NCBI GenBank assembly: GCA_051252195.1
Contig: JBPOGD010000006.1
Span: 144,551-208,550 of the forward strand
Reading direction: 5' to 3'
Length of the DNA stretch: 64,000 bases
Origin: Akkermansiaceae bacterium
GTDB taxonomy: Bacteria; Verrucomicrobiota; Verrucomicrobiia; Verrucomicrobiales; Akkermansiaceae
Shown here: positions 17,125-33,007 of the stretch, piece after piece
Layout: each line of letters starts with the position of its first letter
Numbering within the stretch: position 1 is the first letter of the stretch
The notes under the pieces: model-generated
What the model was told of the DNA's origin: nothing
What the model saw: the letters and a program-made list of their open reading frames with translations, nothing else
The model's database searches: none
Translations under genes and position numbers: made by a program

Positions 17125-18885
17125 TTATAAGAGGTTGATTTCCAGTATTTCAGCGAGATTAGTTTTCAGCGTTTTACGCCGCTCACTCCAGAATGTCTCA
17201 AAGTCGCCAAACTCAAGGCTGGTATTCAAGCCGATATGATTTGCTGTTAAGTAAGCATCTTTAGTCTCTTGAGTGACATACTTATCAGCTACCCATTCAG
17301 TAAATTTCTTTCCGCTTTTAGATTGGTTCGCGCTTTTTTCAAGGAGCTGTAAATTGGGCAGTGTATCTCTCTTAGCTATCCACGTTTGTTGAGCGTCCCC
17401 ATCTAGCCCTAATGTGTTCAGATTAGATTTATAGAAGGCTTTTTTAGGATGTATGTGATCTTGATGAAAGTGCATTTGGCTGAATCTGCACCCAGAATAG
17501 AGAAGCGATAATACTAAGAACGTTCCCCCTCCTGAGGTCTCATGATCTAAGAAGTTATCTAGATCATCTTCATTAAGCGATATGGAACGACCACTCGGTA
17601 ATTTGCAGTGTTTTGCAAAGTCGGTCACTGTGAATTCATTTGATTCGGGAAGGCTCTTTTTCAAGTAAGACCGTATGTCAATGAGGGTTTGATCACTATG
17701 TGAGCCAAACAGCCCAGTCATAAGTGCTCTTATAAGATATAGTCTGAGACTTTCTTTAGAACGGTTTATATCGAAACCCAAGTGATGTGCGTATACGATA
17801 AGTATTACGGCATTTGCAGAAGTTAGTTTAGATGCGTCAAATCCCCAATCTACGAGTAGAACCACTGTGTCGGTTATGCTTTCTGTGATTTTTTGCCAAT
17901 TTGATTTGATTGTTTCAACATTAGCTGCGCCAAAGGCAGATACGTTCAGCTTACTGCCGAAATCACATAATATGAGGCAGCTCCTCATGATCCAGTCAGT
18001 CCCAAAGTTGAACCCATCTCCTAGAGAATTAATATCTGCTAGGAAGTTCTCGATTTTCTCTCTGCCATCATCCCAGTGGGCTACGATAGTAGAAAAAAGA
18101 AGGTCTGTTTTAGAGAGCACCTTACCGCCACTATTGACTCGCACAAAAATATCTAAAATCTCATCGAGACTTTGATTTTTAACGGGGAAGTAGTTGATGA
18201 GCTCTTCTGTGGTTAGACGATTATAGAGTCGGTTTAGTAATCGCTTAGCCTTTCTATTTTGATCATGTGTAATCTCGAAGTTTTGAGGGATGTTCTTCAG
18301 GAAGTTTTCCCATAGATCCTCTACATGATCTGATTCACCAGCTGTTAATACCTCTTTAACTGGAAACCAGCACTCAGGCTCGTTGAACCTCTGCGGGCTG
18401 ACGTCACCCTCTGTTTTAAAAGCGAACTGGTATTCTACCTGGTCATATTCTGCGGCTTCAAAAAAAACGTTCACGTAGAAGAGTCTCTTAGGATAGGATT
18501 CCCTGCGGTTCCTGCGCCTTCCTTTGGTGTGGTAGGCGTAAGACCCCTGAAGCGCTACATACATTGAGTTAAGTCTCTGCTGACCATCTAGCACTCCAGT
18601 AATGTTGCCTTCTAAAATTGGTTGAGGGGCAATTTCGTTTTTCCAGTTATCGTATCCGCTGAAGTTTTGTAAGAATTTATAGAAAACATAGTTGTTTTCT
18701 GTTCCGTCATCGACTTCCCAGAAGAGGAATGTCCCTATGGGGTAGCCTCTCATGATGGAGTCAAAAAGTTTTTCAATTTGGTCCGCATTCCAAACGAACT
18801 TACGCTGGAGGGCTGGCAGGAAAATTTTGTCCTGACCAATATTGATCATGACATCTTTGATAGTTTTAGCTGAATAAGCGGGCAT
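17125..18885 (-). CDS. GmrSD-family type IV (modification-dependent) restriction endonuclease, DUF262 + DUF1524
   Basis: N-terminal DUF262 with the DGQQR motif (VLDGQQRLNSMYVALQG). C-terminal His-Me finger of DUF1524 (MHFHQDHIHPKKAF). Confidence 0.85.
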   Translation of the reverse strand: MPAYSAKTIKDVMINIGQDKIFLPALQRKFVWNADQIEKLFDSIMRGYPIGTFLFWEVDDGTENNYVFYKFLQNFSGYDNWKNEIAPQPILEGNITGVLDGQQRLNSMYVALQGSYAYHTKGRRRNRRESYPKRLFYVNVFFEAAEYDQVEYQFAFKTEGDVSPQRFNEPECWFPVKEVLTAGESDHVEDLWENFLKNIPQNFEITHDQNRKAKRLLNRLYNRLTTEELINYFPVKNQSLDEILDIFVRVNSGGKVLSKTDLLFSTIVAHWDDGREKIENFLADINSLGDGFNFGTDWIMRSCLILCDFGSKLNVSAFGAANVETIKSNWQKITESITDTVVLLVDWGFDASKLTSANAVILIVYAHHLGFDINRSKESLRLYLIRALMTGLFGSHSDQTLIDIRSYLKKSLPESNEFTVTDFAKHCKLPSGRSISLNEDDLDNFLDHETSGGGTFLVLSLLYSGCRFSQMHFHQDHIHPKKAFYKSNLNTLGLDGDAQQTWIAKRDTLPNLQLLEKSANQSKSGKKFTEWVADKYVTQETKDAYLTANHIGLNTSLEFGDFETFWSERRKTLKTNLAEILEINLL

Positions 18886-19022: not shown

Positions 19023-19961
19023 CTAAATAGTTAAATCAACTCCTAATTTAGTATGAAGATGATTTTTTAATATCTTCATTGTCTTAGTCATTAAATTCGA
19101 TTCCTTTTTTAATGTATGACAAGCATAGGCCGATGGGGCAGTCGTTCTATTTCGTATATTTTTAATTTGAACAAGTTCAGTTTTGGAAGCTGAAAGAGAG
19201 GCCGTGATCATGGCCTTTTCAATTAGTCTAAGACGAAAATAGGAACCATCTGATTGCTTTGTTAATGAGTCGAAAGCCTCAGAGATAATAGCTGATCTAG
19301 AAGCTACATTAATTGAGCAGTTAATTGAAAAAGCCCTAGAAATACATTCGCTAACTTGACGTAACTCATCCAAACTTAGTGAAGGTTGTTTAGAACCTTT
19401 TCGATAAAGACTTTTTCCAACCCTGAGCTTAAATAGGTTTTGCTCATCATGCCCCTCAATTAATCCTCTGCGAACAAGCTCATCTATAATGTCTGTAAGA
19501 CTAAACTTGTACACGCCGAGATCAGCTAGAAAAGGGATTGCCATCGTTCTAAATGCGACAAATAGGGCGTCGTTAGCCCACCTGATACCTTCTGCGCAAT
19601 CTGGTGTTTTGTGGAGAAGTGTTGTTAGCCTATATCCGTCCCAAAATTCTTTCTGATAAGAATCCCGTATCTGAAAAGATTTATATAGTAATTGTAATTT
19701 ACCACTGGGATCTGAAAACACTACTGATTCTTCGATTAAATGTTTAATAAACAGAGAGCCAGTCTGCGTTAAATATTCGAGCTTCTTCCAAGTATATGTG
19801 GAACAAGAATAGCCCCTTCTTGTGAAGGTATATTCATTTTCTTGTAGCAAATCTACATCATCTGATACGATCAGAAGATCACGATCACTATGCACGTCAG
19901 TGTCTGTTCGGGCTAGGGACCCAAAAACCGCCATGGATAAGTCTGTATTGGCTCGTTTCAT
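19023..19961 (-). CDS. Pol-beta-superfamily nucleotidyltransferase-domain protein (312 aa)
   Basis: N-terminal NTase motif AVFGSLARTDTDVHSDRDLLIV (the GS...D.D catalytic signature), then a helical region of about 200 aa. It overlaps the upstream gene by 4 nt. Confidence 0.65.
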   Translation of the reverse strand: MKRANTDLSMAVFGSLARTDTDVHSDRDLLIVSDDVDLLQENEYTFTRRGYSCSTYTWKKLEYLTQTGSLFIKHLIEESVVFSDPSGKLQLLYKSFQIRDSYQKEFWDGYRLTTLLHKTPDCAEGIRWANDALFVAFRTMAIPFLADLGVYKFSLTDIIDELVRRGLIEGHDEQNLFKLRVGKSLYRKGSKQPSLSLDELRQVSECISRAFSINCSINVASRSAIISEAFDSLTKQSDGSYFRLRLIEKAMITASLSASKTELVQIKNIRNRTTAPSAYACHTLKKESNLMTKTMKILKNHLHTKLGVDLTI

Positions 19962-20893
19962 CGTTTTACAAGAAATCTAAAGAATATTGATGCTGCAACT
20001 GCAAAAAATAGAACCCCTATGATACTTTGCAAGCCCGCAGTGACTATTCCGAAATTCGAGGTAGCCCAAAAGTTGGAATGCCCCAGTGTAGTGATTAGCG
20101 AAGCTGTATAGTAAAAACTGGTATGAATTTCTCGGTTAACATCGAGCCCTGAAGATGAGTGCTTCATGCCGTAGTATAGCCAAAGTGAGTGGTTCAGAGC
20201 AAAGAGTAGCAAAAAACCAACACACAGACTTCCCGCAACTCGTAAAGGTCGCCAGCCAAATCCTGATGATAGTTGCAGGAAAAAAGCCCATGCATATTTA
20301 GCTAAAAACTTAAATGATCCGATTTTTCTAGTTTCACGGTCTCTGTATAGAGCCAGTCTTTTAAAATAGCTAAACATGAATTCAGCCTCAGCCCGAAATT
20401 CATGTTGATTCTCGCGAAGGCTATTCAAAGAAAGATTTTTGAACAGTCCAACACCTATGTTGGAATATGTTCGGCGATCCAAATTTAGAACCTTTGAAAA
20501 GGATCTAGGGTCAATATAACAAGCATCAAAAGCAGCTTTAAAAAAGTTACAGTTTTCAAAAACACAATGATGAAACTCGCAATTTCGAAACGTGGATCCA
20601 ATAAATAAACAATCAACGAATTTACAATCAGTGAAAGTGAACTGGCTAACCTCTGTCTTACTGAAGCTAACGTTTTTAAAGGTCTTATTCTCTATTTTTG
20701 AGAAGGATTTCGAAGATTTGAGCGTTTCAGGCATATATAGCCTATTTGTCATTTCACCTATTTTATCCATTTCCGATAACTCTTTCTGGAAGTCCTTCTG
20801 CTCGTCAAAATCAGCTACCTCGCCAAGAGTGCGGAAAAAATTCCGCACCTCTGAACCCTGCGTAAGTTTCAGTTCTTTATTTTGAGAAGGCAT
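19958..20893 (-). CDS. pentapeptide-repeat protein fused to a C-terminal two-TM ion-channel pore (Ion_trans_2-like) with non-canonical filter TTLGHSN
   Basis: Pentapeptide run NVSFSKTEVSQFTFTDCKFVDCLFIGSTFRNCEFHHCVFENCNFFKAAFDACYI. The C-terminus has TM1, a pore-helix-like SFYYTASLITTLGHSNF and TM2, collinear with KcsA ALWWSVETATTVGYGD. Confidence 0.65.
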   Translation of the reverse strand: MPSQNKELKLTQGSEVRNFFRTLGEVADFDEQKDFQKELSEMDKIGEMTNRLYMPETLKSSKSFSKIENKTFKNVSFSKTEVSQFTFTDCKFVDCLFIGSTFRNCEFHHCVFENCNFFKAAFDACYIDPRSFSKVLNLDRRTYSNIGVGLFKNLSLNSLRENQHEFRAEAEFMFSYFKRLALYRDRETRKIGSFKFLAKYAWAFFLQLSSGFGWRPLRVAGSLCVGFLLLFALNHSLWLYYGMKHSSSGLDVNREIHTSFYYTASLITTLGHSNFWATSNFGIVTAGLQSIIGVLFFAVAASIFFRFLVKR

Positions 20894-20960
20894 TGAGGTT
20901 TATATAAAACAATTTTATGAATTTTTCTATATTTTTTAAAAAACAAAAATGGAGGAAATA

Positions 20961-21062
20961 GGGTCAGGGAGATAAATGACTCATTAGCTTGGTTGCAGGT
21001 TTGATGTTTTTCTTGAGTGTTATTCGCTCCATCGCCAAGGCTCTGAAGTCGCACTCAGTCTA
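20961..21062 (+). repeat. 100-bp dispersed repeat, copy 2
   Basis: Matches 12921-13020. Confidence 0.7.
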
Positions 21063-21266
21063 GATACCTCGCCAGAAGTTTTCCGACTGACCGAAGAATA
21101 AAACGAAGCGGGTGGACATGATGGGTGTGATACGTTTCCCTAGGACGATTTTATTGATTGCACGGGGTGGGACGTCGATGGCTCGTGCCGTGGCATTTTG
21201 AGAAATACCCATGGGTTGAAGATATTCTTCGAGGAGGATTCCCCCTGCTGTGATTGGCTTTTTCAC
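21060..21266 (-). CDS. higA: HigA-family antitoxin-like HTH protein, C-terminally short and possibly degraded; no intact HigB partner
   Basis: [48 protein letters not shown] matches the HigA/XRE HTH consensus. GTG start. The upstream 190 bp has no intact toxin ORF. Confidence 0.6.
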
Positions 21267-21453: not shown

Positions 21454-22008
21454 TTAAGCTTGCTGGTTATTATTCGCTAGGGGGATTTTGTCGGTTGCTT
21501 CAACAAGACCCTTAAGGAAGCGAATGGCTTTTTCGAGTTCATCACGTTTCACTAGGTGGGGTGCACTCTTGGAGTCGTGATTTTTGTTGGCTTGATGCGC
21601 TGCATCACCCCTTTTTGAAATGATGCCGTCTAATACTCGTTTTGCTTGAGGTGTATCGTAGTTATCCCAAGCCCAGCTTTTCGTTATATCTATGTCAAAA
21701 TACTTTATGAAAAGCTGCTTAGCATTCGAGCTGTTGGGGCTATTGAAGCGACGTAAATCTTCTTTTAATTGGCGGAATGCAAAGTTTGCTATGGGGCTTC
21801 CTCGCATGGCGGATAGCCACATACTTATTTCTTCACGCATACGGTCTTTTAAGTATGTGTCCCATGCCGCTGCCGCTATTATATAGCCCGCGCGTTTGAG
21901 CACTTCGGCATTATGATCGGAAGGTGTGATTTTTTCTTCATCAAAGCGCTTGAGTAGTTCCTCGGCGCCTTTGATGGACTGTTGAAATGCGATTGCTGAT
22001 TCTGACAT
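21454..22008 (-). CDS. hypothetical protein with possible HEPN-like Rx4H motif (KRGDAAH)
   Basis: An alpha-helical 184-aa protein; the Rx4-6H motif lies near the C-terminal third. The assignment is weak. Confidence 0.4.
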   Translation of the reverse strand: MSESAIAFQQSIKGAEELLKRFDEEKITPSDHNAEVLKRAGYIIAAAAWDTYLKDRMREEISMWLSAMRGSPIANFAFRQLKEDLRRFNSPNSSNAKQLFIKYFDIDITKSWAWDNYDTPQAKRVLDGIISKRGDAAHQANKNHDSKSAPHLVKRDELEKAIRFLKGLVEATDKIPLANNNQQA

Positions 22009-22917: not shown

Positions 22918-25092
22918 TTATTTAGCAAATCTAAAGAATTTTTTGCCCGCACCTACTGGTATAGTGACGTTTGCTGAGCTTCCTGTAGGTGTCCAGTCAT
23001 CAGTTACTCCTAAGTCGGCACTTTCTTCTAGGCTAAACTCGATAGTTGCGTTGGTTTCGCTTTGGTCAATAGCGATTGTGATACTCCCAGGGCGTAGGTC
23101 GGTGATTTCAGTAAGATCGTATTTGCTTGCAACTTCTGTTTCTAAGTTATCAATGGCTGTATCCTTGTCAGACAACTGAGTCAGGAGGATATTAACGAGA
23201 GCGTTTTCACTGATAAGGCCAGTGAGAGTAGCACCATTGATATTAATTCCATCGAGGTTAGAAAAGCTTAGGTTGGCGTTCGTGAGGTTAGCACCAGATA
23301 GATCAGCATTGCTCAGATCACTATAGCTCAGGTCAGCACCTGTTAAGTTGGCTCCTGGTCCAATGAGGTATCCGTTAACAAGCTGCCACCCCGCAGGTAA
23401 ACTGTCAGGTATACCGTATTGAATACCTCCAGACTGGACACCAGTTAAATTAGCAGTTCCTAGGTTAGCATTCTCAATATAAATGCCGAATAAATTGGCA
23501 TTCGTGAGATCAGCATTGGTGAAATTATTTGATTCTATAAATGCGTTGGTCAGGTTAGCTCCGCTAAGGTTGGCGTTGGTCAGGTTAACATTATGCAGAT
23601 TTACACCGGTAAGGTTATTACCGCTAAGATTGGCCCCACTAAGGTTGGCTTCGTATAGGATGGTATCCGTAAGGTCATTCTGACTAAGGTTAGATCCACT
23701 GAGGTTGGCGTTATTTAGCATGGCACCTTGAAGGTTAGTTGCGCTAAGGTCAGTGTTGGATAAGTTTGCACCTGGCCCAATAAGGAAGCCGTTATCAAGA
23801 ACCCATTCAGGATCCAAGCTTGTTGGGACTCCTGTTATCCCACCAGATGTCACACCCGTCAGGTCTGATTGACTGAAAAAAGCTCCGCTCAAATTAGCAT
23901 TGACTAGGTTGACGTTCGTAAGTGTTGCATTGACTAATAAAGTATTAGTGAGATTTGCACTAGATAAATTACTGTTAGCGAGATTTGCCTGATCGAGGAA
24001 TGCTTCCGTCAGGTCGACTCCAGTTAAATTCAGGCCATCTAAGTCAGCATAAGCTAAATGGGCGCTTGGTCCGATGAGGTAGCCGTTTGTTAACACCCAG
24101 TTTGTCGGTAAATGGCTGGGGGTGCCTGTGATGCCACCAGAAGAAACACCTGTTAATACTGCACCGCTGAAGTTCGCTCCATTTATATTGGTATTCGTAA
24201 ATTGTGTGTATTCAAGATACGCATTGGTAAAGTTGACATCTGTTAAATTAAAACTTTGAAAATCTAGAAAGGTTAAATCGGCATTAGTAAAGTTGACGCT
24301 TATCAAATGAAAGCCTTGTAAATCAATTCCGCTTAAATCGGCATTAGATAAGTTTGCGCTAGGTCCTATAAGGTATCCGTAACTAAATGTCCAATTTGCA
24401 GGGAGACTAGCAGGAGGAGGGCTAAAGATATTGCCAGACTGTACACCGGAAAGGTCAGCACTTCCCATGATAGCCCCATCTATGAAGGCTCCATTGAGAT
24501 TTGCGTTAATGAGGTTAGCGTTAGATAGGTTCGCATAAGATAGGTCTGTATTAGTGAGCTGATTATTATATAGATTAGAACTGCTAAGGTTGGCTCCAAA
24601 TAAGGCAGAATTTGCCAAATTTGTGCCCGTTAAGTCAGTGTTTGATAAGTCAGCGCCTGGACCTAGGAGAAAGCCATTATCAATTTGCCACAAAGGGGGT
24701 AGGCTGAGAGGTGTTCCCACGATGTCGCCTGAACTAATGTTGATTAATGTAGCTCCGCTGAAATCCGTGTTTGTGAGGTCGGCTCCAGAAAAGCTAACCG
24801 TGTTGTGGATGCTGTTTAATAAATTAGCATTTGTTAAGTTCACATTATCGAATGAAACTTCTTCAAATGATGATCCCATAAGATCTGCATTTGCTAAATT
24901 AGCGTTTGTTAAATCAGCGTTATAGAGAGTGATAGAACTAGCTAGATTAGCTCCATTGTATGAATGGAGTACACTTGTATTAATATTGATAATATCTAAG
25001 ACCTGTCCAGATGTGTTGGTATAGGTGGCGGCTTGTGTTAAGGCTGCTAATTTAAGAAAGCACAGTGCTGCAACTTTGTTATAGTGGATCAT
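22918..25092 (-). CDS. large secreted pentapeptide-repeat protein with six periodic non-repeat insertions and a C-terminal beta-rich domain
   Basis: Long A(D/N)LxxAxL pentapeptide runs are interrupted about every 95 aa by GITGxPxxLPxxWxLxNGYLIGPxAxLSxADLSG. Signal-peptide-like VAALCFLKLAALTQAA after Met31, so the start is at 25092. Confidence 0.8.
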   Translation of the reverse strand: MIHYNKVAALCFLKLAALTQAATYTNTSGQVLDIININTSVLHSYNGANLASSITLYNADLTNANLANADLMGSSFEEVSFDNVNLTNANLLNSIHNTVSFSGADLTNTDFSGATLINISSGDIVGTPLSLPPLWQIDNGFLLGPGADLSNTDLTGTNLANSALFGANLSSSNLYNNQLTNTDLSYANLSNANLINANLNGAFIDGAIMGSADLSGVQSGNIFSPPPASLPANWTFSYGYLIGPSANLSNADLSGIDLQGFHLISVNFTNADLTFLDFQSFNLTDVNFTNAYLEYTQFTNTNINGANFSGAVLTGVSSGGITGTPSHLPTNWVLTNGYLIGPSAHLAYADLDGLNLTGVDLTEAFLDQANLANSNLSSANLTNTLLVNATLTNVNLVNANLSGAFFSQSDLTGVTSGGITGVPTSLDPEWVLDNGFLIGPGANLSNTDLSATNLQGAMLNNANLSGSNLSQNDLTDTILYEANLSGANLSGNNLTGVNLHNVNLTNANLSGANLTNAFIESNNFTNADLTNANLFGIYIENANLGTANLTGVQSGGIQYGIPDSLPAGWQLVNGYLIGPGANLTGADLSYSDLSNADLSGANLTNANLSFSNLDGININGATLTGLISENALVNILLTQLSDKDTAIDNLETEVASKYDLTEITDLRPGSITIAIDQSETNATIEFSLEESADLGVTDDWTPTGSSANVTIPVGAGKKFFRFAK

Positions 25093-25325
25093 TACGTGAG
25101 TTTTTATTGGTAGCATACTTGTTATTTTCCTAGTATGTGATGACGATAAATAATTAGTGATCTGATAGATTTTATATAACAAGCCCTAACCATATTAACT
25201 TCGAGCCAAGTATTATTTAAATAAACTTACGGCAGGCAGGGCTACCTCACTATAGGGGGCTAAAGAGTTGGGATTAGACATGTAAGCTACATGCAGTGCC
25301 CTAGCCTTTCTTGAGGCTTCTTGCC

Positions 25326-28300
25326 CTAATCTCCTTGTCTGACATCGGGCTTGATGGTGATGGGGGTTTTCTTCGCCGTTTTCTTCTTACTCGTCTTCTC
25401 CATGTTCTCTACGCCGCTTTGTTGGTCGGCGATGAGGTTGATATCGACTTCTACGGGGACGGCTCTTAGTGCTGAGATGATTTTCTCTAGCTGAGTGACG
25501 GTTTCGTTCGCTAGGCTCTGGGGCTGGGCGTAGCTGCTGCCTGCGGCGGCGATGCCGTCTTTGATGGAGTCGAGGCCGTCATTGAACTGGGTGAGCTGGG
25601 CGACGACGCGGCTGATGGGGTCGTTCTCACCAGCTCCGCCGAGGAGTTTGTTTTTATTGAAATCTTTTTTGATCGATTCCCAGCGTTGGGTGTCGGCCTC
25701 ACTGAGGATGCCTTCCATTTCCTTGAACTTGAGTAAATTTGCCTCGGCTCCGGTGGTGAGGGTCTGCGATTCATTTTCGTAGTGATCGATGATGATGGCG
25801 CGGACTTCATCGTGGGTCATCATGGGAAGAATTTTCTCCGCCATGCGGCTCATGTTTCGGTAAGAGCCTTGCAGTTTAAAGGCGGGTTCGGTGCGGTAGT
25901 TGTCCTCTTGGGCGGCGGATTGAATATACTGCAAGTTTACCTGCAGAATGGTATCGCGCACGGTGTAGAGGTGCTTGACGGTTTGGACAAAATCATCGAT
26001 CTCGGCAGGGGTGTAATTGCCTTCGAAATCGACTCCCTCTGGGCTGCCTGAGGTGGCGATTTGCATCACGGCGTAGACGTCTTTTTGAGAACGAGAAGCG
26101 AGTTTGGAAAGGACGCTATTGGAGGTGAGGCAGTTTTCGATGTACGAGGCTTTGAATGACTCCGCGTGGCCGCCGATGATGTCGCCGAGATTGTAGGTGT
26201 CTGCTCGGTTAGCTAACATGTCGGGGATCTGGAACTTGCCACCGCTCTCGGTATAAGGGTTTCCTGCCATGACGACCGAGACTTTTTTACCACGGAGATC
26301 GTAGGTGCGTGCTCTGCCCTGATAGACGCCTTCAATCTTACGCTGGGCATCACAGAGGGAAATGAACTTCTGGAGAAACTCGGGATGACAGTGCTGGATG
26401 TCATCGAGGTAAAGCATGACATTGTCACCCATTTCTAGAGCGAGGTTAAGCTTTTCAATTTCTTCACGCGCCGAGGCGTTAGGTGCCTCTGCGGGGTCGA
26501 GTGATTTGACGTCATGACCAATGGCGGGACCATTGATTTTCATGAAGGTGAGTCCGAGACGATCTGCCACGTATTCCATCAGCGTCGTTTTTCCGTATCC
26601 CGGAGGAGAAATGAGGAGCAGAAGGCCCATGCGATCGGTGCGGGTATCGACGCCGGCGGTGCCCATCTGTTTGGCGAGATTATCACCGATCATCGGGAGG
26701 TAGACGTCGTTGAGGAGTTTATTGCGCACGAAGGAGGACATGACGCGTGCCTGGAACTCATTGAGACGCATCTCTTGGCGCTTGGCCTCTGTGAGCTTGT
26801 GCTTGATGTTTTGGTAAGCGAGGTAAACGGGGACGATCTCTGTTTCGAAGTGATCCAGCTTGTCCATAAAATCGTTATAGTGCAGCTGGTAGTTAGGCTC
26901 GGTGCCGAGGAGTCCTGTGACGTCAGCGGTAACGACGACGTGGTGGACGTTGAGGGTGCTGTATGTGTCGGCTGCTAGATGGGCTGCGGCTTCAGATAAT
27001 AGTGCCTGATTGCTGAGTTCGCTCGTCGATCTCAGCCAATCGAGAATCGTTTGGTACTTCGCCTTACCTGTGAGGGTGGAAATAGAGTCTTCGTAGTTTT
27101 TCTGCGCGCGTTTGGCGGTGAGGGTTTGGTGGAATTTTTTGAGGATGCTGTCCGCCTCGGGCGAAATAACAAAGTCTGTTCCAGAGCTGAGTTGATCGTA
27201 GAGATAGGCTGCTGTGCTCGTGATCAGTGGGGTGTGACCAGTGCTCGGGGAGTGCTGGGTGAGAGCATTTTCGAGGATCGCAATATAGGGGTTTCCAGCC
27301 GTGTAGGAGGTCTGCTCGAAGCCGCTTTTCCTCATGAGAGCGTGGTTCTGTAGCTGCGTGGCGAGGGTGTTTTTTTCCTCAGACTCCCAGAGACTCCAGA
27401 AGAGGACAGCCATGGCACGCACCTCGGGACTGTACTTAAGTAGTCCGATATTTTGGTGAATGGGCATAATGGCTTGCAGAAAGAGGAAGGCGTCGTGGTC
27501 GTGGACGCCCTTGGTGTAGGACTCTGAGTAGCGTGAGGCGGCGAACTTCTGGATGGATTCTATCGATAGAGAATTTGGGTGTGCGGCTTCGCCATTTGTT
27601 TCATTCACGACCGGAACGGGCATGCTACGGAGGAACTGGTAAGCAAGGTACTCGCCGCGGTAGACGTCCTTGTTTTCAGAAATAAGCTCCTGATCCCAGA
27701 TTGGCTGGGTGGCGAGGAAATCGGGATCCGTGATCGGTTCAAAGAAGTCGGTTCCCGTGAGGTGAAAACACATCGCAGCATCGCGAGGCACGATGGAAAG
27801 CTCAAGCTTCTGGGTGTTAACGGCAAACTTGTGTTTACCTAACTTGATAATATTTGTGCCGTCGACGAAGAGTTCCTTACGGTCTTTGAGCTGTCGTACG
27901 GCATCTTCTTTGAGCGTTTTAAGCTGTGTCTGGATGTCGGCAGATTTAACCGAGTTTCCGAGGTCGTTGAGCTGCTCAATGATGTCGCGGACCTTGGAAA
28001 TCATCAGGTCACCAGCGAAGTAGCCGTTGATTTCGTTAAGTTCCTTAAAGGTAGCGACACGATTTTTAATGCCTGATAGAACGCGTTCGGCAGATTTAAC
28101 AAGGTTGGCTGCGCGTTTATTGCGTTTTTCTGTAAGAGCTGTTTTACGGGAGTCGAAGGCGCTGTAGACCTCCTCGCGCTTGGCTGCGAGATCTTCCGCG
28201 TACTCGTCAAACTCAGCAAATTTTCCTTCTAACTCCTCAATCTGCACCATGACCTTGGTGAGATACTCCTCACACTTTTCAGGGGCGTCACAGAGATCGA

Positions 28301-30392
28301 GAAAATTAACGATAGCTTGTCCTAGCAGCTTCATCTGCGCTCCGAACTGAGCGGAGCCCTCGGACTTCGCGAGTGCTTGGCGTTTGTTTTTAAGCTCAGC
28401 ACGAACAGCATTCAGCACCGAGTATATGTTAGAAATATTATCAATGATCGCCGTCGTCTGCGTGGCGTCTGCGATTTTTAAGTTACTAACTACATCGATA
28501 AGCATTTCTAACTCAGCAGCGCAGGTATCGAGAGCTTCTGATGTAGCATCGGCGTCAGTGACTTTAACAAGTTGTTCGATTTTTACTTTTTGCTCATCGA
28601 CACTACGGCGGTAAGAATCCAGAGCCTCGGGAGTCAGGAGGAAGCGAACTGTTTTCTCAGAAACTGCTTCGGTAGAGCTGACGACTTGCTGCTCGAGCTC
28701 GGTGATAAGATCTGCATCGACGTAACGCAGATCGCGGAGACCGATGATGTCGCCACGCAGCGTGCGGAGCTTCGAAAGCTGGTGAACGTAGCCCTGGATA
28801 TTCTCAGGTGGCGTGTGCTCGATTTCCCTGAGGAGTTTGTCGACAGCTTGCTGTGTTTGCTTGGTCTGCTGTGCAGTGGATTGACGGAGGCGAACGACCT
28901 TATCAAATTCATCGATCGCTGAGTTTGCCGCGGCATTGATTTCGCGGAGCGGTTGTGAAAGCTCAAAGGCTTCCTCGTTAGCTAACCAGAAATAGGTGTC
29001 GTTGATATCGCCTGTTTTTTTGACAAGGTCGAGATAGAGACCGGCGTAGGAATCTTCTTTCGATAGCAGGTTGAGTATTTCACGTGACTCTGCCATGCAG
29101 CGGACGATGTCTGCATTGCCTATTTTAAAGAGTAGTGAGCCATTCTCTGTGGCAGAGGCCGCACTGAAATCGGCGTCGAGATAGGGGGTTTGCCAAACCT
29201 GAATGACGTGGTGTTTCTGCGCCGCTTCATCCGAGCGGAAGTAGAGAAGTTTGCCATCGGGGAAAACGGAATAGCCGCTGCAAATAATCGGCGTGTCCAC
29301 GGCACGTTCGATGAGATTGTAGGAAAGCAGTACGTAGTCGCCGTTGCTGCGATTATAGAAAACAAAGAGCGTGTCCTCACCATTGGCGCTGACGATTCGT
29401 TTCTCAAAGCGCATGTCATCGAGACCGTGGTCGAAAATCTTGACCTCACCACTCAGCAGCAAATAGCCGTTGGCAAAGATCAGTCCTTGATCATCTGGTA
29501 GCAAAACGCATGAGTGCCCGATGGCATCGAGCCTGTGAACCTGCTGGGTTTTTTCATTATAAACGAGGTAACGGTAATCCTCCTCACGATAGGGGAGAAT
29601 CTTCAAAAGAACCAAGGGGCCTACGATGGCGTAGAGCACCTCTGCGTCATCAAGCGTCTGGTCTTTATCGGTGACGTCTTCTTGGTAAATACCTTTGCCT
29701 GAGCTGGTGTTATCCTCGATTTTGATGGTGAGATCACCGCCTACGGTTTCGACAAATATTTTATCCTCGATCGAAATATGAGGGTGCTCACCAGGCCGCT
29801 GCATGTCGCGATGGGCGCGCAGCCACTCGAACTCCTGCTGGGCGGGAAACTTGTACTCGTGATCAAAGCGATTACCGAGATACTCCATCGTACCGTCGCC
29901 ATTGAGTCGCCACTTAAAGGTTTTTAAATCATCGAGCCCTTTGCCAATGCGCACCGCCATGTGGAGGTGGGGGCCATTGAGCATGAATTTTACAAAAGTC
30001 GCCTGTTTGTAGTATTTATAAACGGAGTGGAAATCGTCGTGGAAATCACGGCCAAATATTTCTGAAGCATCAACCCGGGTGAGCGCGTGCGATTCGATAT
30101 CGTAATCGTAGATTGAAAACACATCGGCTGGCTCCATGGTTTGTTTGAGTCCAAACTGGATGTTGTAGCCAAAGAGGAAGCGACTTTTACCGATGGGCGT
30201 GATATCGCGCGCCACACAGTTATGCTCGGTGCTGATGCGCTCCGTGGCGATGAGTGCGGGGTCGATCGCACCAAAGATCTCTTTACGTGCGGTATTGAGT
30301 TGCTCAATACGCTCCCGCAAGACAGAGCCATGCTTCTCCATACGCCCGCGGATAACCTCATAGGAACCGCCTTCTAGTTGTTGATCTGACAT
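25326..30392 (-). CDS. giant (1688 aa) protein with a single MoxR/dynein-like (AAA_5-type) AAA+ module near the C-terminus, a long central coiled coil and a beta-rich N-terminal region
   Basis: Walker A ISPPGYGKTTLMEY. Walker B and the MoxR-like helix LYLDDIQHCHPEFLQKFISLCD. Sensor-1 VSVVMAGNP. A coiled-coil-rich region of about 400 aa. Confidence 0.8.
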   Translation of the reverse strand: MSDQQLEGGSYEVIRGRMEKHGSVLRERIEQLNTARKEIFGAIDPALIATERISTEHNCVARDITPIGKSRFLFGYNIQFGLKQTMEPADVFSIYDYDIESHALTRVDASEIFGRDFHDDFHSVYKYYKQATFVKFMLNGPHLHMAVRIGKGLDDLKTFKWRLNGDGTMEYLGNRFDHEYKFPAQQEFEWLRAHRDMQRPGEHPHISIEDKIFVETVGGDLTIKIEDNTSSGKGIYQEDVTDKDQTLDDAEVLYAIVGPLVLLKILPYREEDYRYLVYNEKTQQVHRLDAIGHSCVLLPDDQGLIFANGYLLLSGEVKIFDHGLDDMRFEKRIVSANGEDTLFVFYNRSNGDYVLLSYNLIERAVDTPIICSGYSVFPDGKLLYFRSDEAAQKHHVIQVWQTPYLDADFSAASATENGSLLFKIGNADIVRCMAESREILNLLSKEDSYAGLYLDLVKKTGDINDTYFWLANEEAFELSQPLREINAAANSAIDEFDKVVRLRQSTAQQTKQTQQAVDKLLREIEHTPPENIQGYVHQLSKLRTLRGDIIGLRDLRYVDADLITELEQQVVSSTEAVSEKTVRFLLTPEALDSYRRSVDEQKVKIEQLVKVTDADATSEALDTCAAELEMLIDVVSNLKIADATQTTAIIDNISNIYSVLNAVRAELKNKRQALAKSEGSAQFGAQMKLLGQAIVNFLDLCDAPEKCEEYLTKVMVQIEELEGKFAEFDEYAEDLAAKREEVYSAFDSRKTALTEKRNKRAANLVKSAERVLSGIKNRVATFKELNEINGYFAGDLMISKVRDIIEQLNDLGNSVKSADIQTQLKTLKEDAVRQLKDRKELFVDGTNIIKLGKHKFAVNTQKLELSIVPRDAAMCFHLTGTDFFEPITDPDFLATQPIWDQELISENKDVYRGEYLAYQFLRSMPVPVVNETNGEAAHPNSLSIESIQKFAASRYSESYTKGVHDHDAFLFLQAIMPIHQNIGLLKYSPEVRAMAVLFWSLWESEEKNTLATQLQNHALMRKSGFEQTSYTAGNPYIAILENALTQHSPSTGHTPLITSTAAYLYDQLSSGTDFVISPEADSILKKFHQTLTAKRAQKNYEDSISTLTGKAKYQTILDWLRSTSELSNQALLSEAAAHLAADTYSTLNVHHVVVTADVTGLLGTEPNYQLHYNDFMDKLDHFETEIVPVYLAYQNIKHKLTEAKRQEMRLNEFQARVMSSFVRNKLLNDVYLPMIGDNLAKQMGTAGVDTRTDRMGLLLLISPPGYGKTTLMEYVADRLGLTFMKINGPAIGHDVKSLDPAEAPNASAREEIEKLNLALEMGDNVMLYLDDIQHCHPEFLQKFISLCDAQRKIEGVYQGRARTYDLRGKKVSVVMAGNPYTESGGKFQIPDMLANRADTYNLGDIIGGHAESFKASYIENCLTSNSVLSKLASRSQKDVYAVMQIATSGSPEGVDFEGNYTPAEIDDFVQTVKHLYTVRDTILQVNLQYIQSAAQEDNYRTEPAFKLQGSYRNMSRMAEKILPMMTHDEVRAIIIDHYENESQTLTTGAEANLLKFKEMEGILSEADTQRWESIKKDFNKNKLLGGAGENDPISRVVAQLTQFNDGLDSIKDGIAAAGSSYAQPQSLANETVTQLEKIISALRAVPVEVDINLIADQQSGVENMEKTSKKKTAKKTPITIKPDVRQGD

Positions 30393-30468: not shown

Positions 30469-30507
30469 CACGGATTACGCGGATTTCACGGATTTTTATC
30501 ACGAATG
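30469..30507. promoter_or_regulatory. cluster of four direct-repeat half-sites CRCGGAT/CACGAAT with 9-12 bp spacing, 77-115 nt upstream of the giant AAA+ gene start
   Basis: cacggatta cgcggattt cacggattttta tcacgaatg. The same motif occurs at 5954-5980, 7601-7618 and 10730-10756. Confidence 0.4.
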
Positions 30508-30872
30508 ATACGTTCATAGGAGAGTTGTTTAGGATCTCCGAAGTTAACGAGATACCCTAGCTTAAATGACGTAGCTTTTAGATAATTGTGTAACTGAGAA
30601 CGATGGCTGTCATCTATTGCAGAAACAGCTTTGAGTTCGATGATGATTTTTGAATGAGCAACGATGTCTGGCTGGTAGCTTTGTTTTAGCTGTTTTCCTT
30701 TATAGATTATTTCTAGCTTAGGCTGCTGAACAAAAGGGATTTTTCTCTCTTGTAGCTCCATGCATAAAGCCTCTTGATAAACAGCCTCTAAAAACCCTGA
30801 GCCTAATTCGTTATAAACATCATAAAAGGCTCCAACGAGGGGGTAAGTTTCATTTTCATAAAGCAGAGCCAT
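30486..30872 (-). CDS. GxxExxY-family protein (PD-(D/E)XK-like)
   Basis: Signature GSGFLEAVYQEAL and overall match to the GxxExxY family (128 aa). Confidence 0.85.
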   Translation of the reverse strand: MALLYENETYPLVGAFYDVYNELGSGFLEAVYQEALCMELQERKIPFVQQPKLEIIYKGKQLKQSYQPDIVAHSKIIIELKAVSAIDDSHRSQLHNYLKATSFKLGYLVNFGDPKQLSYERIIRDKNP

Positions 30873-30994: not shown

Positions 30995-33007
30995 CTATCC
31001 TAAGAAGTCCTTAGCGGGGGTGTCCTTGAGGTTGAATCGTTCGGCGGCGTTGAGGAAACCGACGATTTTATCGCGGTTTTCGCTGTCGGCTTTGACCATG
31101 ATGTTTCCTAATAAGGCTCCTACGGAGAGGTTTTTGATGTCCTCGGTGGCGAAGCCATATTCTTCAATCCATGTTGCGATCTGGCTCTTGTAGTATTCAG
31201 GGTCGGCGTTGAAGAAGGTTTCTTTCACATCGTGCAGCACGCGGCTGTTGTCCACAGTGCGGTCGACGACCTTGCCTGAGGTGATCGCGCTGGTGATGCG
31301 ATCAAAGAACTCAGTTTCGCCACCCACGATGTCGATCTTAGCTGACTTGAGAGCTTCTCCCACGACGATGGCTTGCTGCTCAGCAATCTGACGCTGAACA
31401 TCGATTTCTGCGAGCTCCACGGCTTTTTCCTTATCGAGTTCGAGCTTGAACTCCTCGTGCTCCTGACCAGCTTCTCCGAAGAGTTTCATGGCAGCAGCTT
31501 TCTGCTCAATAGCGTCGGCGTCAGCTTCACCCTTCGCACGCATAACCTGAGCTTCACCCATACCAACAGCGGCGGCTTCTTTCGCAGAAGCGTCAGCTAG
31601 CATGATCTTAGCAGAGGCATTTTTCTCAGCCGCGATTTGATCGGCATCGGCAGCGATGACCACTTCTTCAGCGTGAAGTTCGGCAGCTTGTTTATCACCT
31701 TCAGCAGATTTGACTTTTTCATAGAGTTCTTGATCCGCCTTGAGGATAGCAGCTTCTTTGACCGCTTCGGCACGCTTGATTTGCTCGATGAGGATTTCTT
31801 GTGCTTGCGCTTCTGCGAGGGTGACTTTCACCTGCTTCTCACGATCTGCTCCAGCAAATGCCTCGGTGTCCTTGATTTTCTCCTGTTCGATCACCACGGT
31901 TTTTTCCACGGCGACGCGCTCTTTGATGACATCTTGGATTTCTTTGCGCTGAACTTCTACCGCCTTGTCTTTTTCAATGGCTTTGATCTCTGTGAGACGC
32001 TCGCGTTCGATGGATTCAAGTTGTTGATCACGCTTCACCCGCTCTAGTTCAACGACGTCGGTGCGTTCCTTATTGCGTTGAGCCACGAGGACTTGGCGCT
32101 GTTTGTTTTCCTCAGAAATTTGGATTTCCTCTTCGGCGCTGATGCGTGCCTGCTCAGATTTCTGGCGCTGCTCTTCCTCGACCTTGAGGGTGTCGGCTAC
32201 TTCGCGTGCTTGTGCAACTTTGACTTCTCGCTCCTGCTTGGCCTCTGTTTCTGCGAGCTGGCGTTCGAGCTCAAGGATGGCCTCGCGTGCTTCCACGTCC
32301 TGCTGCTTGAGAACTTTTTCCTTGTCGCGCTGAATGTTGTTAGAAAGCTTCGCCTGTTCGGCGGTAAGGTGGTGGATTTTTTTAATACCCTCGGCATCGA
32401 GAATGTTATCGGGATCGAGCGACTCGAGCGGAGTTTGCTCAAGGTAATCGATCGCTGCATCATCAAGGACGAAGCCGTTAAGGTCAGTACCGATGATTTT
32501 CAGCATTTCGTCGCGGAAGGTATCGCGCTCTTCATAGAGCTGAGTGAAGTCGAACTTTTTACCCACGGTTTTAAGCGCCTCAGAGAACTTAGCATCGAAG
32601 AGAGCGCGGATTTCTGGCTCAGAAGAAGCGCGATCGCAGCCGATGGATTCGGCAACGCGGAGTACATCGTCCTCGACGTTGTTGACGCGGACGAAGAAAG
32701 CGACCTTGATATCGGCGCGCATATTGTCCTTACAGATGAGGCCATTTTTACCTGTGCGGTCGACCTCGATTCGTTTGACGGAAATGTCGATGAGTTCGGC
32801 GCGGTTGATCAGTGGGTAGACAGTGCCACCGTTAAAGATGACCTTTGTCCGTGGAATTCCTGTGACGACTAAAGCAGTGCCTTTTTCCACCTTGCGGTAA
32901 AAGGTGACGATGAGGATGGCGATGCCAATCAGAGCCAGTAGGATGATGACGGCACCCATAATTAAGACATTGGGTGCAAAGGATGTTGCGGCTAACATGT
33001 TGTTCAT
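30995..33007 (-). CDS. flotillin-like SPFH/band-7 protein (YqiK/FloT-type) with long E/K/Q-rich coiled-coil
   Basis: N-terminal TM segment, an SPFH domain (VYPLINRAELIDISVKRIEVDR..., IKVAFFVRVNNVEDDVLRVAES) and an EA/EQ-repeat region. Confidence 0.9.
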   Translation of the reverse strand: MNNMLAATSFAPNVLIMGAVIILLALIGIAILIVTFYRKVEKGTALVVTGIPRTKVIFNGGTVYPLINRAELIDISVKRIEVDRTGKNGLICKDNMRADIKVAFFVRVNNVEDDVLRVAESIGCDRASSEPEIRALFDAKFSEALKTVGKKFDFTQLYEERDTFRDEMLKIIGTDLNGFVLDDAAIDYLEQTPLESLDPDNILDAEGIKKIHHLTAEQAKLSNNIQRDKEKVLKQQDVEAREAILELERQLAETEAKQEREVKVAQAREVADTLKVEEEQRQKSEQARISAEEEIQISEENKQRQVLVAQRNKERTDVVELERVKRDQQLESIERERLTEIKAIEKDKAVEVQRKEIQDVIKERVAVEKTVVIEQEKIKDTEAFAGADREKQVKVTLAEAQAQEILIEQIKRAEAVKEAAILKADQELYEKVKSAEGDKQAAELHAEEVVIAADADQIAAEKNASAKIMLADASAKEAAAVGMGEAQVMRAKGEADADAIEQKAAAMKLFGEAGQEHEEFKLELDKEKAVELAEIDVQRQIAEQQAIVVGEALKSAKIDIVGGETEFFDRITSAITSGKVVDRTVDNSRVLHDVKETFFNADPEYYKSQIATWIEEYGFATEDIKNLSVGALLGNIMVKADSENRDKIVGFLNAAERFNLKDTPAKDFLG

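Follow-up and report, generated by a model that had tools for sequence, protein, structure and literature searches.

A probable Hailong-type channel and nucleotidyltransferase pair of a divergent clade in an Akkermansiaceae bacterium

What is the role of a nucleotidyltransferase (NTase) whose gene overlaps that of a membrane channel? This question is raised by two genes in a 64,000-nucleotide stretch of DNA from an Akkermansiaceae bacterium (GenBank assembly GCA_051252195.1, contig JBPOGD010000006.1, positions 144,551 to 208,550), which we call the window and number from its first letter. Both open reading frames (ORFs) are intact and lie on the minus strand, as do all other window features located below. 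The channel gene (19958..20893, 311 residues) is the first of the pair and the NTase gene (19023..19961, 312 residues) the second, and their four-nucleotide ATGA stop/start overlap (19958..19961; AAA CGA TGA / ATG AAA) is predicted to couple their translation. In the existing NCBI annotation the products are named only "hypothetical protein" and "pentapeptide repeat-containing protein". An initial annotation, made from the sequence alone, had already delimited both overlapping ORFs, leaving just their strand and order to be stated, and had regarded their domain combination as an undescribed system. That combination has in fact been described and experimentally characterized, because it is the architecture of Hailong, with its HalA and HalB proteins. 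The pair is most likely a Hailong-type anti-phage guard system, belonging to a divergent clade that has no name in curated models.

Hailong consists of the channel effector HalA and the NTase HalB (Tan et al., Nature 2025, per PMC13434031, PMC13276650), and a pair made of a pentapeptide/K-channel protein and an NTase has been independently validated as antiviral Hailong (PMC13586616). We compared the window proteins with the NCBIfam equivalog models of the two families (NF051894/NF051895), using as canonical controls a Hailong pair from a Sulfitobacter plasmid (L062) and a HalB from a Rhizobium plasmid (L061). The window NTase matches the HalB model at E 1e-24 (87.4 bits) and the channel protein matches the HalA model at E 1.4e-9 (37.7 bits). 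Relatives of the NTase score 51-74 bits on the HalB model, and all 45 channel-family members that were compared match the HalA model, the best reaching E 2e-16. Family profiles extend these matches: in the NTase profile, positions 6-164 align with the canonical HalBs (E 2e-26 and 2e-23), and the channel profile matches canonical HalA colinearly in both domains. The Sulfitobacter locus also has the same effector-then-NTase gene order as the window.

Searches against solved structures point to the same proteins. With the single NTase as query, HalB (9dbh, 9dbi, 9dbj) is the sole significant solved relative in the PDB sequence search (E 2e-5), and a profile of ten NTase sequences retrieves HalB at E 4.7e-13 and nothing else at E<=0.1. 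An hhalign comparison of the NTase with a canonical HalB gives a probability of 98.8%. Similarly, in a Foldseek search with the AlphaFold2 model of the NTase, HalB chains occupy the first 13 ranks (E 6e-8 to 1e-6, template modeling (TM) score at most 0.71), followed after a gap of five logs by ANT(4') (E 5e-3), GlnE and MntA (E ~1e-2). The top Foldseek match of the channel model is 9nyi, titled "HalA in complex with oligodeoxyadenylate" (E 6.8e-9, probability 1.0), which aligns over its full length and is the only significant match besides the pentapeptide-domain protein SV2A.

Several observations weigh against this assignment. Neither window protein reaches the equivalog cut-off of its model (190 bits for HalB, 250 bits for HalA), both of which are passed by the controls (220.8 bits for the Rhizobium HalB, 266.6 bits for the Sulfitobacter HalA). 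Identity of the window pair to the solved HalA and HalB proteins is 13-24%, and the Foldseek TM score of the channel model to 9nyi is 0.36. Residues 165-312 of the NTase have no sequence similarity to canonical HalB, the alignment stopping at profile position 164. Both canonical HalBs that were examined end in tyrosine (...FDY*, ...FSY*), whereas the conserved tyrosine of the window clade is internal, in a P-x-x-Y motif. Finally, the canonical HalA that was examined has no counterpart of the S-F-S-K-T motif in the channel solenoid of the window clade, which may therefore recognize another ligand or bind it at a different site. The lack of a useful match to the pair in a PADLOC scan carries no information either way, because PADLOC 2023 misses the canonical Hailong pair as well; another study likewise describes that DefenseFinder and PADLOC failed to detect Hailong (PMC13586616). 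The clade is large, divergent and nameless in the NCBIfam models and PADLOC 2023, and the family census of Tan et al. may already include it.

The initial annotation had further likened the NTase to CD-NTase, AbiEii and ANT enzymes and had read the pair as a candidate signaling or abortive-infection module working by the logic of cyclic oligonucleotide-based antiphage signaling systems (CBASS) and AbiE-like systems. Under CBASS-like logic, infection would switch on the NTase, and the channel would open in response to the nucleotide second messenger that this enzyme makes. The pairing of an NTase with a membrane effector is indeed superficially similar, and one relative of the pair adjoins a true CBASS operon, as a separate unit. 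Yet no similarity to CD-NTase, SMODS or DncV was found in Pfam, NCBIfam, PADLOC, the PDB profile search or the listed Foldseek matches; no sensor domain of the SAVED, STING or CARF type is present in the channel; and HalA, the only full-length structural relative of the channel, is inhibited by DNA (PMC13434031). We therefore consider CBASS-like signaling very unlikely. The abortive-infection part of the earlier proposal is right in kind, while its signal polarity is probably wrong, the signal being inhibitory in Hailong. The comparison with CD-NTase and AbiEii also fails, HalB being the sole solved sequence relative of the NTase. An AbiE assignment was rejected separately: there is no AbiEii/DUF1814 match in Pfam or PADLOC, and the partner is a channel rather than a transcriptional antitoxin of the AbiEi type.

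To assess whether the two genes belong together, as the initial annotation had suggested checking in databases, we surveyed their relatives, which match at E 1e-40 to 1e-70. The genes themselves are real. The pair proved to be co-conserved at all 60 related loci, spread over seven phyla, wherever flanking DNA is present. Each of four NTase relatives that were looked up has a gene for a pentapeptide protein of 289-305 residues directly upstream with a four-nucleotide overlap (one of these proteins also has Ion_trans_2), and each of five channel relatives has a HalB-like gene within 3 kb, directly downstream in three cases. A genome scan with the NTase alignment as query, covering one genome per species, yielded 50 loci in Dehalococcoidia, Alpha-, Beta- and Gammaproteobacteria, Acidobacteriota, Bacteroidia, Latescibacterota and Desulfobacula. 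In every one of these with upstream DNA, a channel-family gene lies immediately upstream on the same strand, and the four-nucleotide overlap of the called genes recurs in loci L001-L006. No third conserved gene was found at these loci; since no other family recurs in more than four of them, the unit consists of two genes. A search of 1.84 billion representative proteins returned 324 NTase relatives at E<=1e-30, and the best 150 of these are mostly 290-340 residues long and match most of the profile. The clade thus comprises at least 324 clusters at 50% identity. No NTase relatives were found on plasmids or phages by tblastn or on viral contigs by scanning.

These co-occurrence data effectively refute the reading of the NTase as an antibiotic-modifying enzyme of the ANT type that only happens to stand beside an unrelated channel gene. 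Outside HalB, ANT(4') is the nearest structural neighbor, as a distant second, and one relative has a weak ANT(4')-I match (E 4e-5, 23 bits against a cut-off of 350). However, the NTase gene is invariably paired with the channel gene, with translational coupling; the similarity to HalB is far stronger; and no ANT sequence appears at E<=0.1 in the PDB profile search. Membership of the ANT family was rejected on the lack of any ANT model match in NCBIfam, the remote fold likeness (E 5e-3) comparing with 6e-8 for HalB.

The NTase itself begins with a core homologous to HalB (residues 10-164, the extent of the NCBIfam match; 19470..19934), which comprises a Pol-beta NTase fold and the first helices. 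Its GS...DxD signature, FGSLARTDTDVHSDRDLLIV, lies at residues 13-32, and G14, S15, D26 and D28 are kept in 56 of 57 aligned relatives. The catalytic D26-R-D28 (19878..19886) aligns to the HalB "SDVDLL" motif as the counterpart of HalB D21/D23, the pair mutated in PDB entry 9dbi (title "HalB D21A/D23A"). H74 is invariant, and E78 and D84 are conservatively substituted in 1 and 3 of the 57 sequences, respectively. The Pfam NTP_transf_2 match is borderline (21.3 bits). As the initial annotation had noted, the signature is followed by a helical domain: the AlphaFold2 model (predicted local distance difference test score (pLDDT) 91.7) has a long helical region after the core, with helices over residues 170-305, and in the family-profile alignment residues 165-312 (19026..19469) form a clade-specific helical C-terminal region. 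Conserved basic residues (R138, R180, K183, R187 and R245) could hold a polyanionic product. An equivalent of HalB R164 was sought, but the pairwise alignment places it at the non-conserved I168 and not at the invariant R180, and we claim no equivalence.

Within the C-terminal region, a P-x-x-Y motif (P276-S-A-Y279; 19125..19136) is invariant in all 34 NTase sequences of one alignment and present in 52 of 57. It sits 24-57 residues before the variable C-terminus, in a tail that is otherwise variable and modeled at lower confidence (local pLDDT ~70). The window NTase ends in ...DLTI, with Y279 33 residues from the end; Y241 is a second invariant tyrosine. On the strength of its conservation we propose Y279 as the candidate priming tyrosine.

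This motif also bears on a type VII toxin-antitoxin (TA) reading, in which an NTase like MntA of the MntA/HepT systems would neutralize the channel "toxin" by direct nucleotidylation, without making a diffusible or protein-linked DNA ligand. The genetics of such a system would be identical in appearance, with an NTase antidote and a channel toxin; MntA structures are in the Foldseek list (E ~1e-2), and the window NTase and its relatives give weak MntA_antitoxin matches (E 0.08 to 1e-5), all below the 60-bit cut-off. The window NTase itself scores 12.9 bits on that model, its HalB matches are better than those to MntA by at least five logs, its channel partner has no HEPN domain in Pfam, and an invariant P-x-x-Y in the NTase's own tail suits self-priming better than modification of a target. 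Modification of the channel by an MntA-like enzyme is thus unlikely, and a Hailong-type pair remains the preferred reading.

The effector comprises an N-terminal lead, a pentapeptide beta-solenoid, a helical linker and a pore module with two transmembrane helices (TM1, TM2), the same solenoid and TM1, pore-helix and TM2 unit that the initial annotation had recognized. Pfam places the pentapeptide repeats at residues 66-133 (Pentapeptide_4, Pentapeptide), and the AlphaFold2 model (pLDDT 91.4, predicted TM score 0.83) has beta strands, assigned with DSSP, at residues 47-123. Together with the invariant columns of the alignment, these delimit a cytoplasmic solenoid of residues 47-128 (20510..20755). 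It carries a conserved cysteine ladder (C90/C95/C110) and the S76-F-S-K79-T motif, with S76 and K79 invariant, and it matches residues 53-126 of canonical HalA colinearly, which suggests that it is probably the equivalent of the HalA "crown". A helical linker (residues 129-210; 20264..20509; modeled helices 144-160, 164-187 and 193-210) connects the solenoid to the membrane. The pore module (19961..20263) consists, in the model, of TM1 at residues 216-236, a pore helix at 256-268, the filter and TM2 at 280-310. Ion_trans_2 matches residues 255-309 at 19.7 bits, under the Pfam cut-off of 22.5, and a profile of 45 channel homologues matches the pore domains of K2P, Kv and KirBac channels at E 1e-11 to 1e-9.

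At the selectivity-filter position (residues 268-274; 20072..20092) the window protein reads TTLGHSN, degenerate with respect to T-x-G-Y/F-G-D. A T/S/N-x-G-[YF]-G-D filter is found in 23 of 51 channel-family members (~45%), and TTLGHSN is unique to the window protein. The position is highly variable within the family, with TTLGYGD and TTLGFGD and also TVLGFSS, STFGTAD, TQLVDSQ and others. Judging from these sequences, ion selectivity may be dispensable for effector function, and TTLGHSN probably gives a non-selective cation pore; the initial annotation had reasonably suggested a non-selective or gated pore from TLGHS, the filter being non-canonical. We rejected placement in the K+-selective channel class in view of this filter and the sub-threshold Ion_trans_2 match; the pore fold itself is present.

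Could the pair instead have no immune function, its K+ channel serving housekeeping or osmoregulation and its NTase acting as an accessory regulator? The canonical filter in nearly half of the family would suit such a role, as would the position of several loci among UvrC, MutL and purine synthesis genes and the absence of NTase relatives from phage and plasmid records and viral contigs. Against this, the family is patchy over the seven phyla with varying flanks, the window pair occupies a low-GC island with defense genes on both sides, genes at some loci are disrupted by insertion sequences (IS) or apparently split, and the homology of both proteins is specifically to a defense system proven by experiment. 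A housekeeping function is accordingly highly improbable. The outcomes that the initial annotation had named as refuting its proposal, lack of co-conservation elsewhere and grouping of the NTase with ANT enzymes and of the channel with housekeeping K+ channels, were not what the searches returned.

How might a Hailong-type pair act here? According to reviews and PDB titles, canonical HalB is a tetrameric NTase that synthesizes template-free poly- or oligodeoxyadenylate (oligo-dA), with the hydroxyl of one of its tyrosines as primer; oligo-dA of five nucleotides, bound at the subunit interfaces of the cytoplasmic crown, holds the HalA tetramer closed; a phage 5'-3' DNA exonuclease triggers the system by destroying this signal; and opening of HalA leads to Na+ entry, depolarization and growth arrest (PMC13434031, PMC13276650, PMC13275509). 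We ascribe the same guard logic to the window pair because it is homologous to characterized Hailong. The HalB-like NTase would constitutively produce a short single-stranded DNA as its signal, which in canonical Hailong is oligo-dA, with synthesis primed on a tyrosine of its own, for which Y279 is the candidate. The signal would bind the pentapeptide-solenoid crown of a tetrameric HalA-like channel and keep the pore shut. Removal of the signal by a phage DNA exonuclease would then open the channel, and the resulting depolarization would stop growth before the phage cycle is completed. The signaling logic is thus probably the reverse of that of CBASS, with a constitutive inhibitory DNA signal. 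For the window pair, the product chemistry, priming residue, inhibitory polarity, trigger and ion selectivity are all inferred by homology. An anti-phage system of the abortive-infection type is the best reading of the pair.

The 5' end of the channel gene deserves a brief comment. Homologues begin M-L-x-x-F-F, which aligns with R17-N-F-F of the window protein, and residues 7-13 are modeled with pLDDT below 50; for both reasons the true start may be a GTG at 20848 (V16; 20846..20848). Promoter-like hexamers lie in an AT-rich leader just 5' of the called start (20912..20940), where their position alone is suggestive; in a consensus scan for promoters and terminators, the number of sites was no higher than expected from shuffled sequence.

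The surroundings of the pair point to a low-GC defense island. GC content is 0.38-0.41 across the pair region and roughly 0.45-0.52 for most of the window. On the same strand, 137 nucleotides downstream of the NTase gene, is a gene for a GmrSD-type (DUF262/DUF1524) nuclease of 586 residues (17125-18885; PADLOC candidate HEC-05, E 1.5e-178). It is a separate defense gene within the common island, because it is not conserved beside the pair at other loci. Upstream of the pair, a 68-residue ORF of the HigA antitoxin family (21060-21266; TIGR02607, E 8e-16) appears truncated at its C-terminus; no HigB-sized ORF lies upstream of it, and it is probably a TA remnant. Next comes a HEPN protein of the RiboL-PSP type (21454-22008, 184 residues; Pfam E 2.6e-20, no PADLOC match), which may be a stand-alone defense or toxin gene, and then a protein of 754 residues made almost entirely of pentapeptide repeats (22918-25182; Pfam E 5e-88, no PADLOC match). 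Farther on, a family scan identifies a 1688-residue protein with DUF3686, DUF7902 and AAA ATPase domains (25326-30392), beside which stand a PD-(D/E)XK_3 protein (30486-30872) and a 670-residue protein with no family match (30995-33007); these three may form another uncharacterized module of the island. No tRNA that could mark an integration-site boundary occurs in the window.

Variant loci were also observed among the relatives. In Desulfolutivibrio sulfoxidireducens (CP045506; L007, 4001-8553) the channel gene is shortened to 268 codons, two IS transposases separate it from the NTase gene, and the NTase has lost the P-x-x-Y motif; the locus seems to be a copy of the system in decay. The unit that adjoins the CBASS operon (DncV-like NTase and patatin) is rearranged (L008, 2012-8374), with the NTase upstream of the channel gene and a small GIY-YIG ORF on the opposite strand between them. 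In metagenome-assembled genomes (MAGs), the channel gene is split into two ORFs at five loci (L027, L037, L038, L043, L044) and the NTase gene at two (L053, L055), which could mean that a toxic effector is being pseudogenized or that the MAG assemblies contain indel errors.

Other NTase pairings lie outside the clade. Loci L057, L058 and L060 encode an NTase of 226-255 residues without P-x-x-Y and a pentapeptide/channel protein of 298-337 residues. They were considered as canonical Hailong and ruled out, both proteins being under the HalA and HalB cut-offs, and represent a third, short-NTase type; a 122-residue ORF is common to all three and lies directly downstream of the NTase gene in L057. 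On Rhizobium leguminosarum plasmid pCC283b_5 (L061, 2038-3669), a HalB with a terminal tyrosine is paired with a soluble WYL-domain protein and not with HalA, and 5.4-kb ColRNAI plasmids of Klebsiella (L063) carry a HalB-like protein alongside DUF1883 and WYL-domain genes. Such partners suggest that WYL-domain proteins may be further readers of HalB-made DNA signals.

The window locus extends Hailong, in which an inhibitory DNA signal guards an ion channel, to Verrucomicrobiota and brings to light a large clade without a name in the curated NCBIfam models or in PADLOC 2023. The finding reveals no new principle. The clade offers natural variation for probing Hailong, with a moved candidate priming tyrosine, an extra NTase domain and K+ filters ranging from canonical to degenerate, differences relevant to how synthesis is primed, how the ligand is recognized and which ions pass.

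Among known systems, Hailong is the closest to the window pair, HalA being the best and HalB the only solved relative of its proteins. Both have two co-oriented genes, effector then NTase, in a defense-island setting; both effectors join a cytoplasmic solenoid of the pentapeptide type to a C-terminal two-transmembrane pore-loop channel; and both NTases share the GS...DxD signature and a common core fold. The window NTase differs in its length of ~310 residues, ~90 more than canonical HalB (~225), with an unrelated C-terminal region of ~150 residues, and the effectors of its clade are shorter (~290-310 residues) than canonical ones (340-371). The pore of the clade is nearer to that of true K+ channels (consensus TTLGYGD/TTLGFGD), whereas the examined canonical HalA reads FLFGYTNH. 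Tentatively, and with somewhat more doubt than conviction, we suggest that the long-HalB clade is a distinct, uncharacterized Hailong subtype, combining NTases of ~310 residues, in which a helical C-terminal domain is peculiar to the clade and the invariant P-x-x-Y is internal, with short HalA-like channels, which have an S-F-S-K-T solenoid and often a true K+ filter. The extra domain and moved tyrosine might alter priming, the identity of the product (not necessarily oligo-dA) or the phage cue that is sensed, and killing by the effectors might come from loss of K+ and not from entry of Na+.

More distant systems share parts of this design. CBASS with transmembrane or ion-channel effectors also combines an NTase with a membrane-disrupting effector and an abortive-infection outcome; the window NTase lacks the CD-NTase fold and family membership, the window channel lacks a cyclic-nucleotide sensor domain, and the polarity of the signal is reversed if the homology to Hailong holds. 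The MntA/HepT type VII TA system similarly uses a minimal Pol-beta NTase that protects against a toxic partner, and the NTase cores are weakly similar in sequence and structure, but the window toxin is a channel rather than a HEPN RNase, and its NTase carries a large helical domain and, in the tail, a conserved tyrosine. Lastly, in comparison with the prokaryotic two-transmembrane K+ channels (KcsA, KirBac, MthK, GsuK and NaK), the window channel has a pentapeptide solenoid as its cytoplasmic domain instead of an RCK or Kir domain, a TTLGHSN filter without G-Y-G, and a gene that is always paired with that of an NTase.

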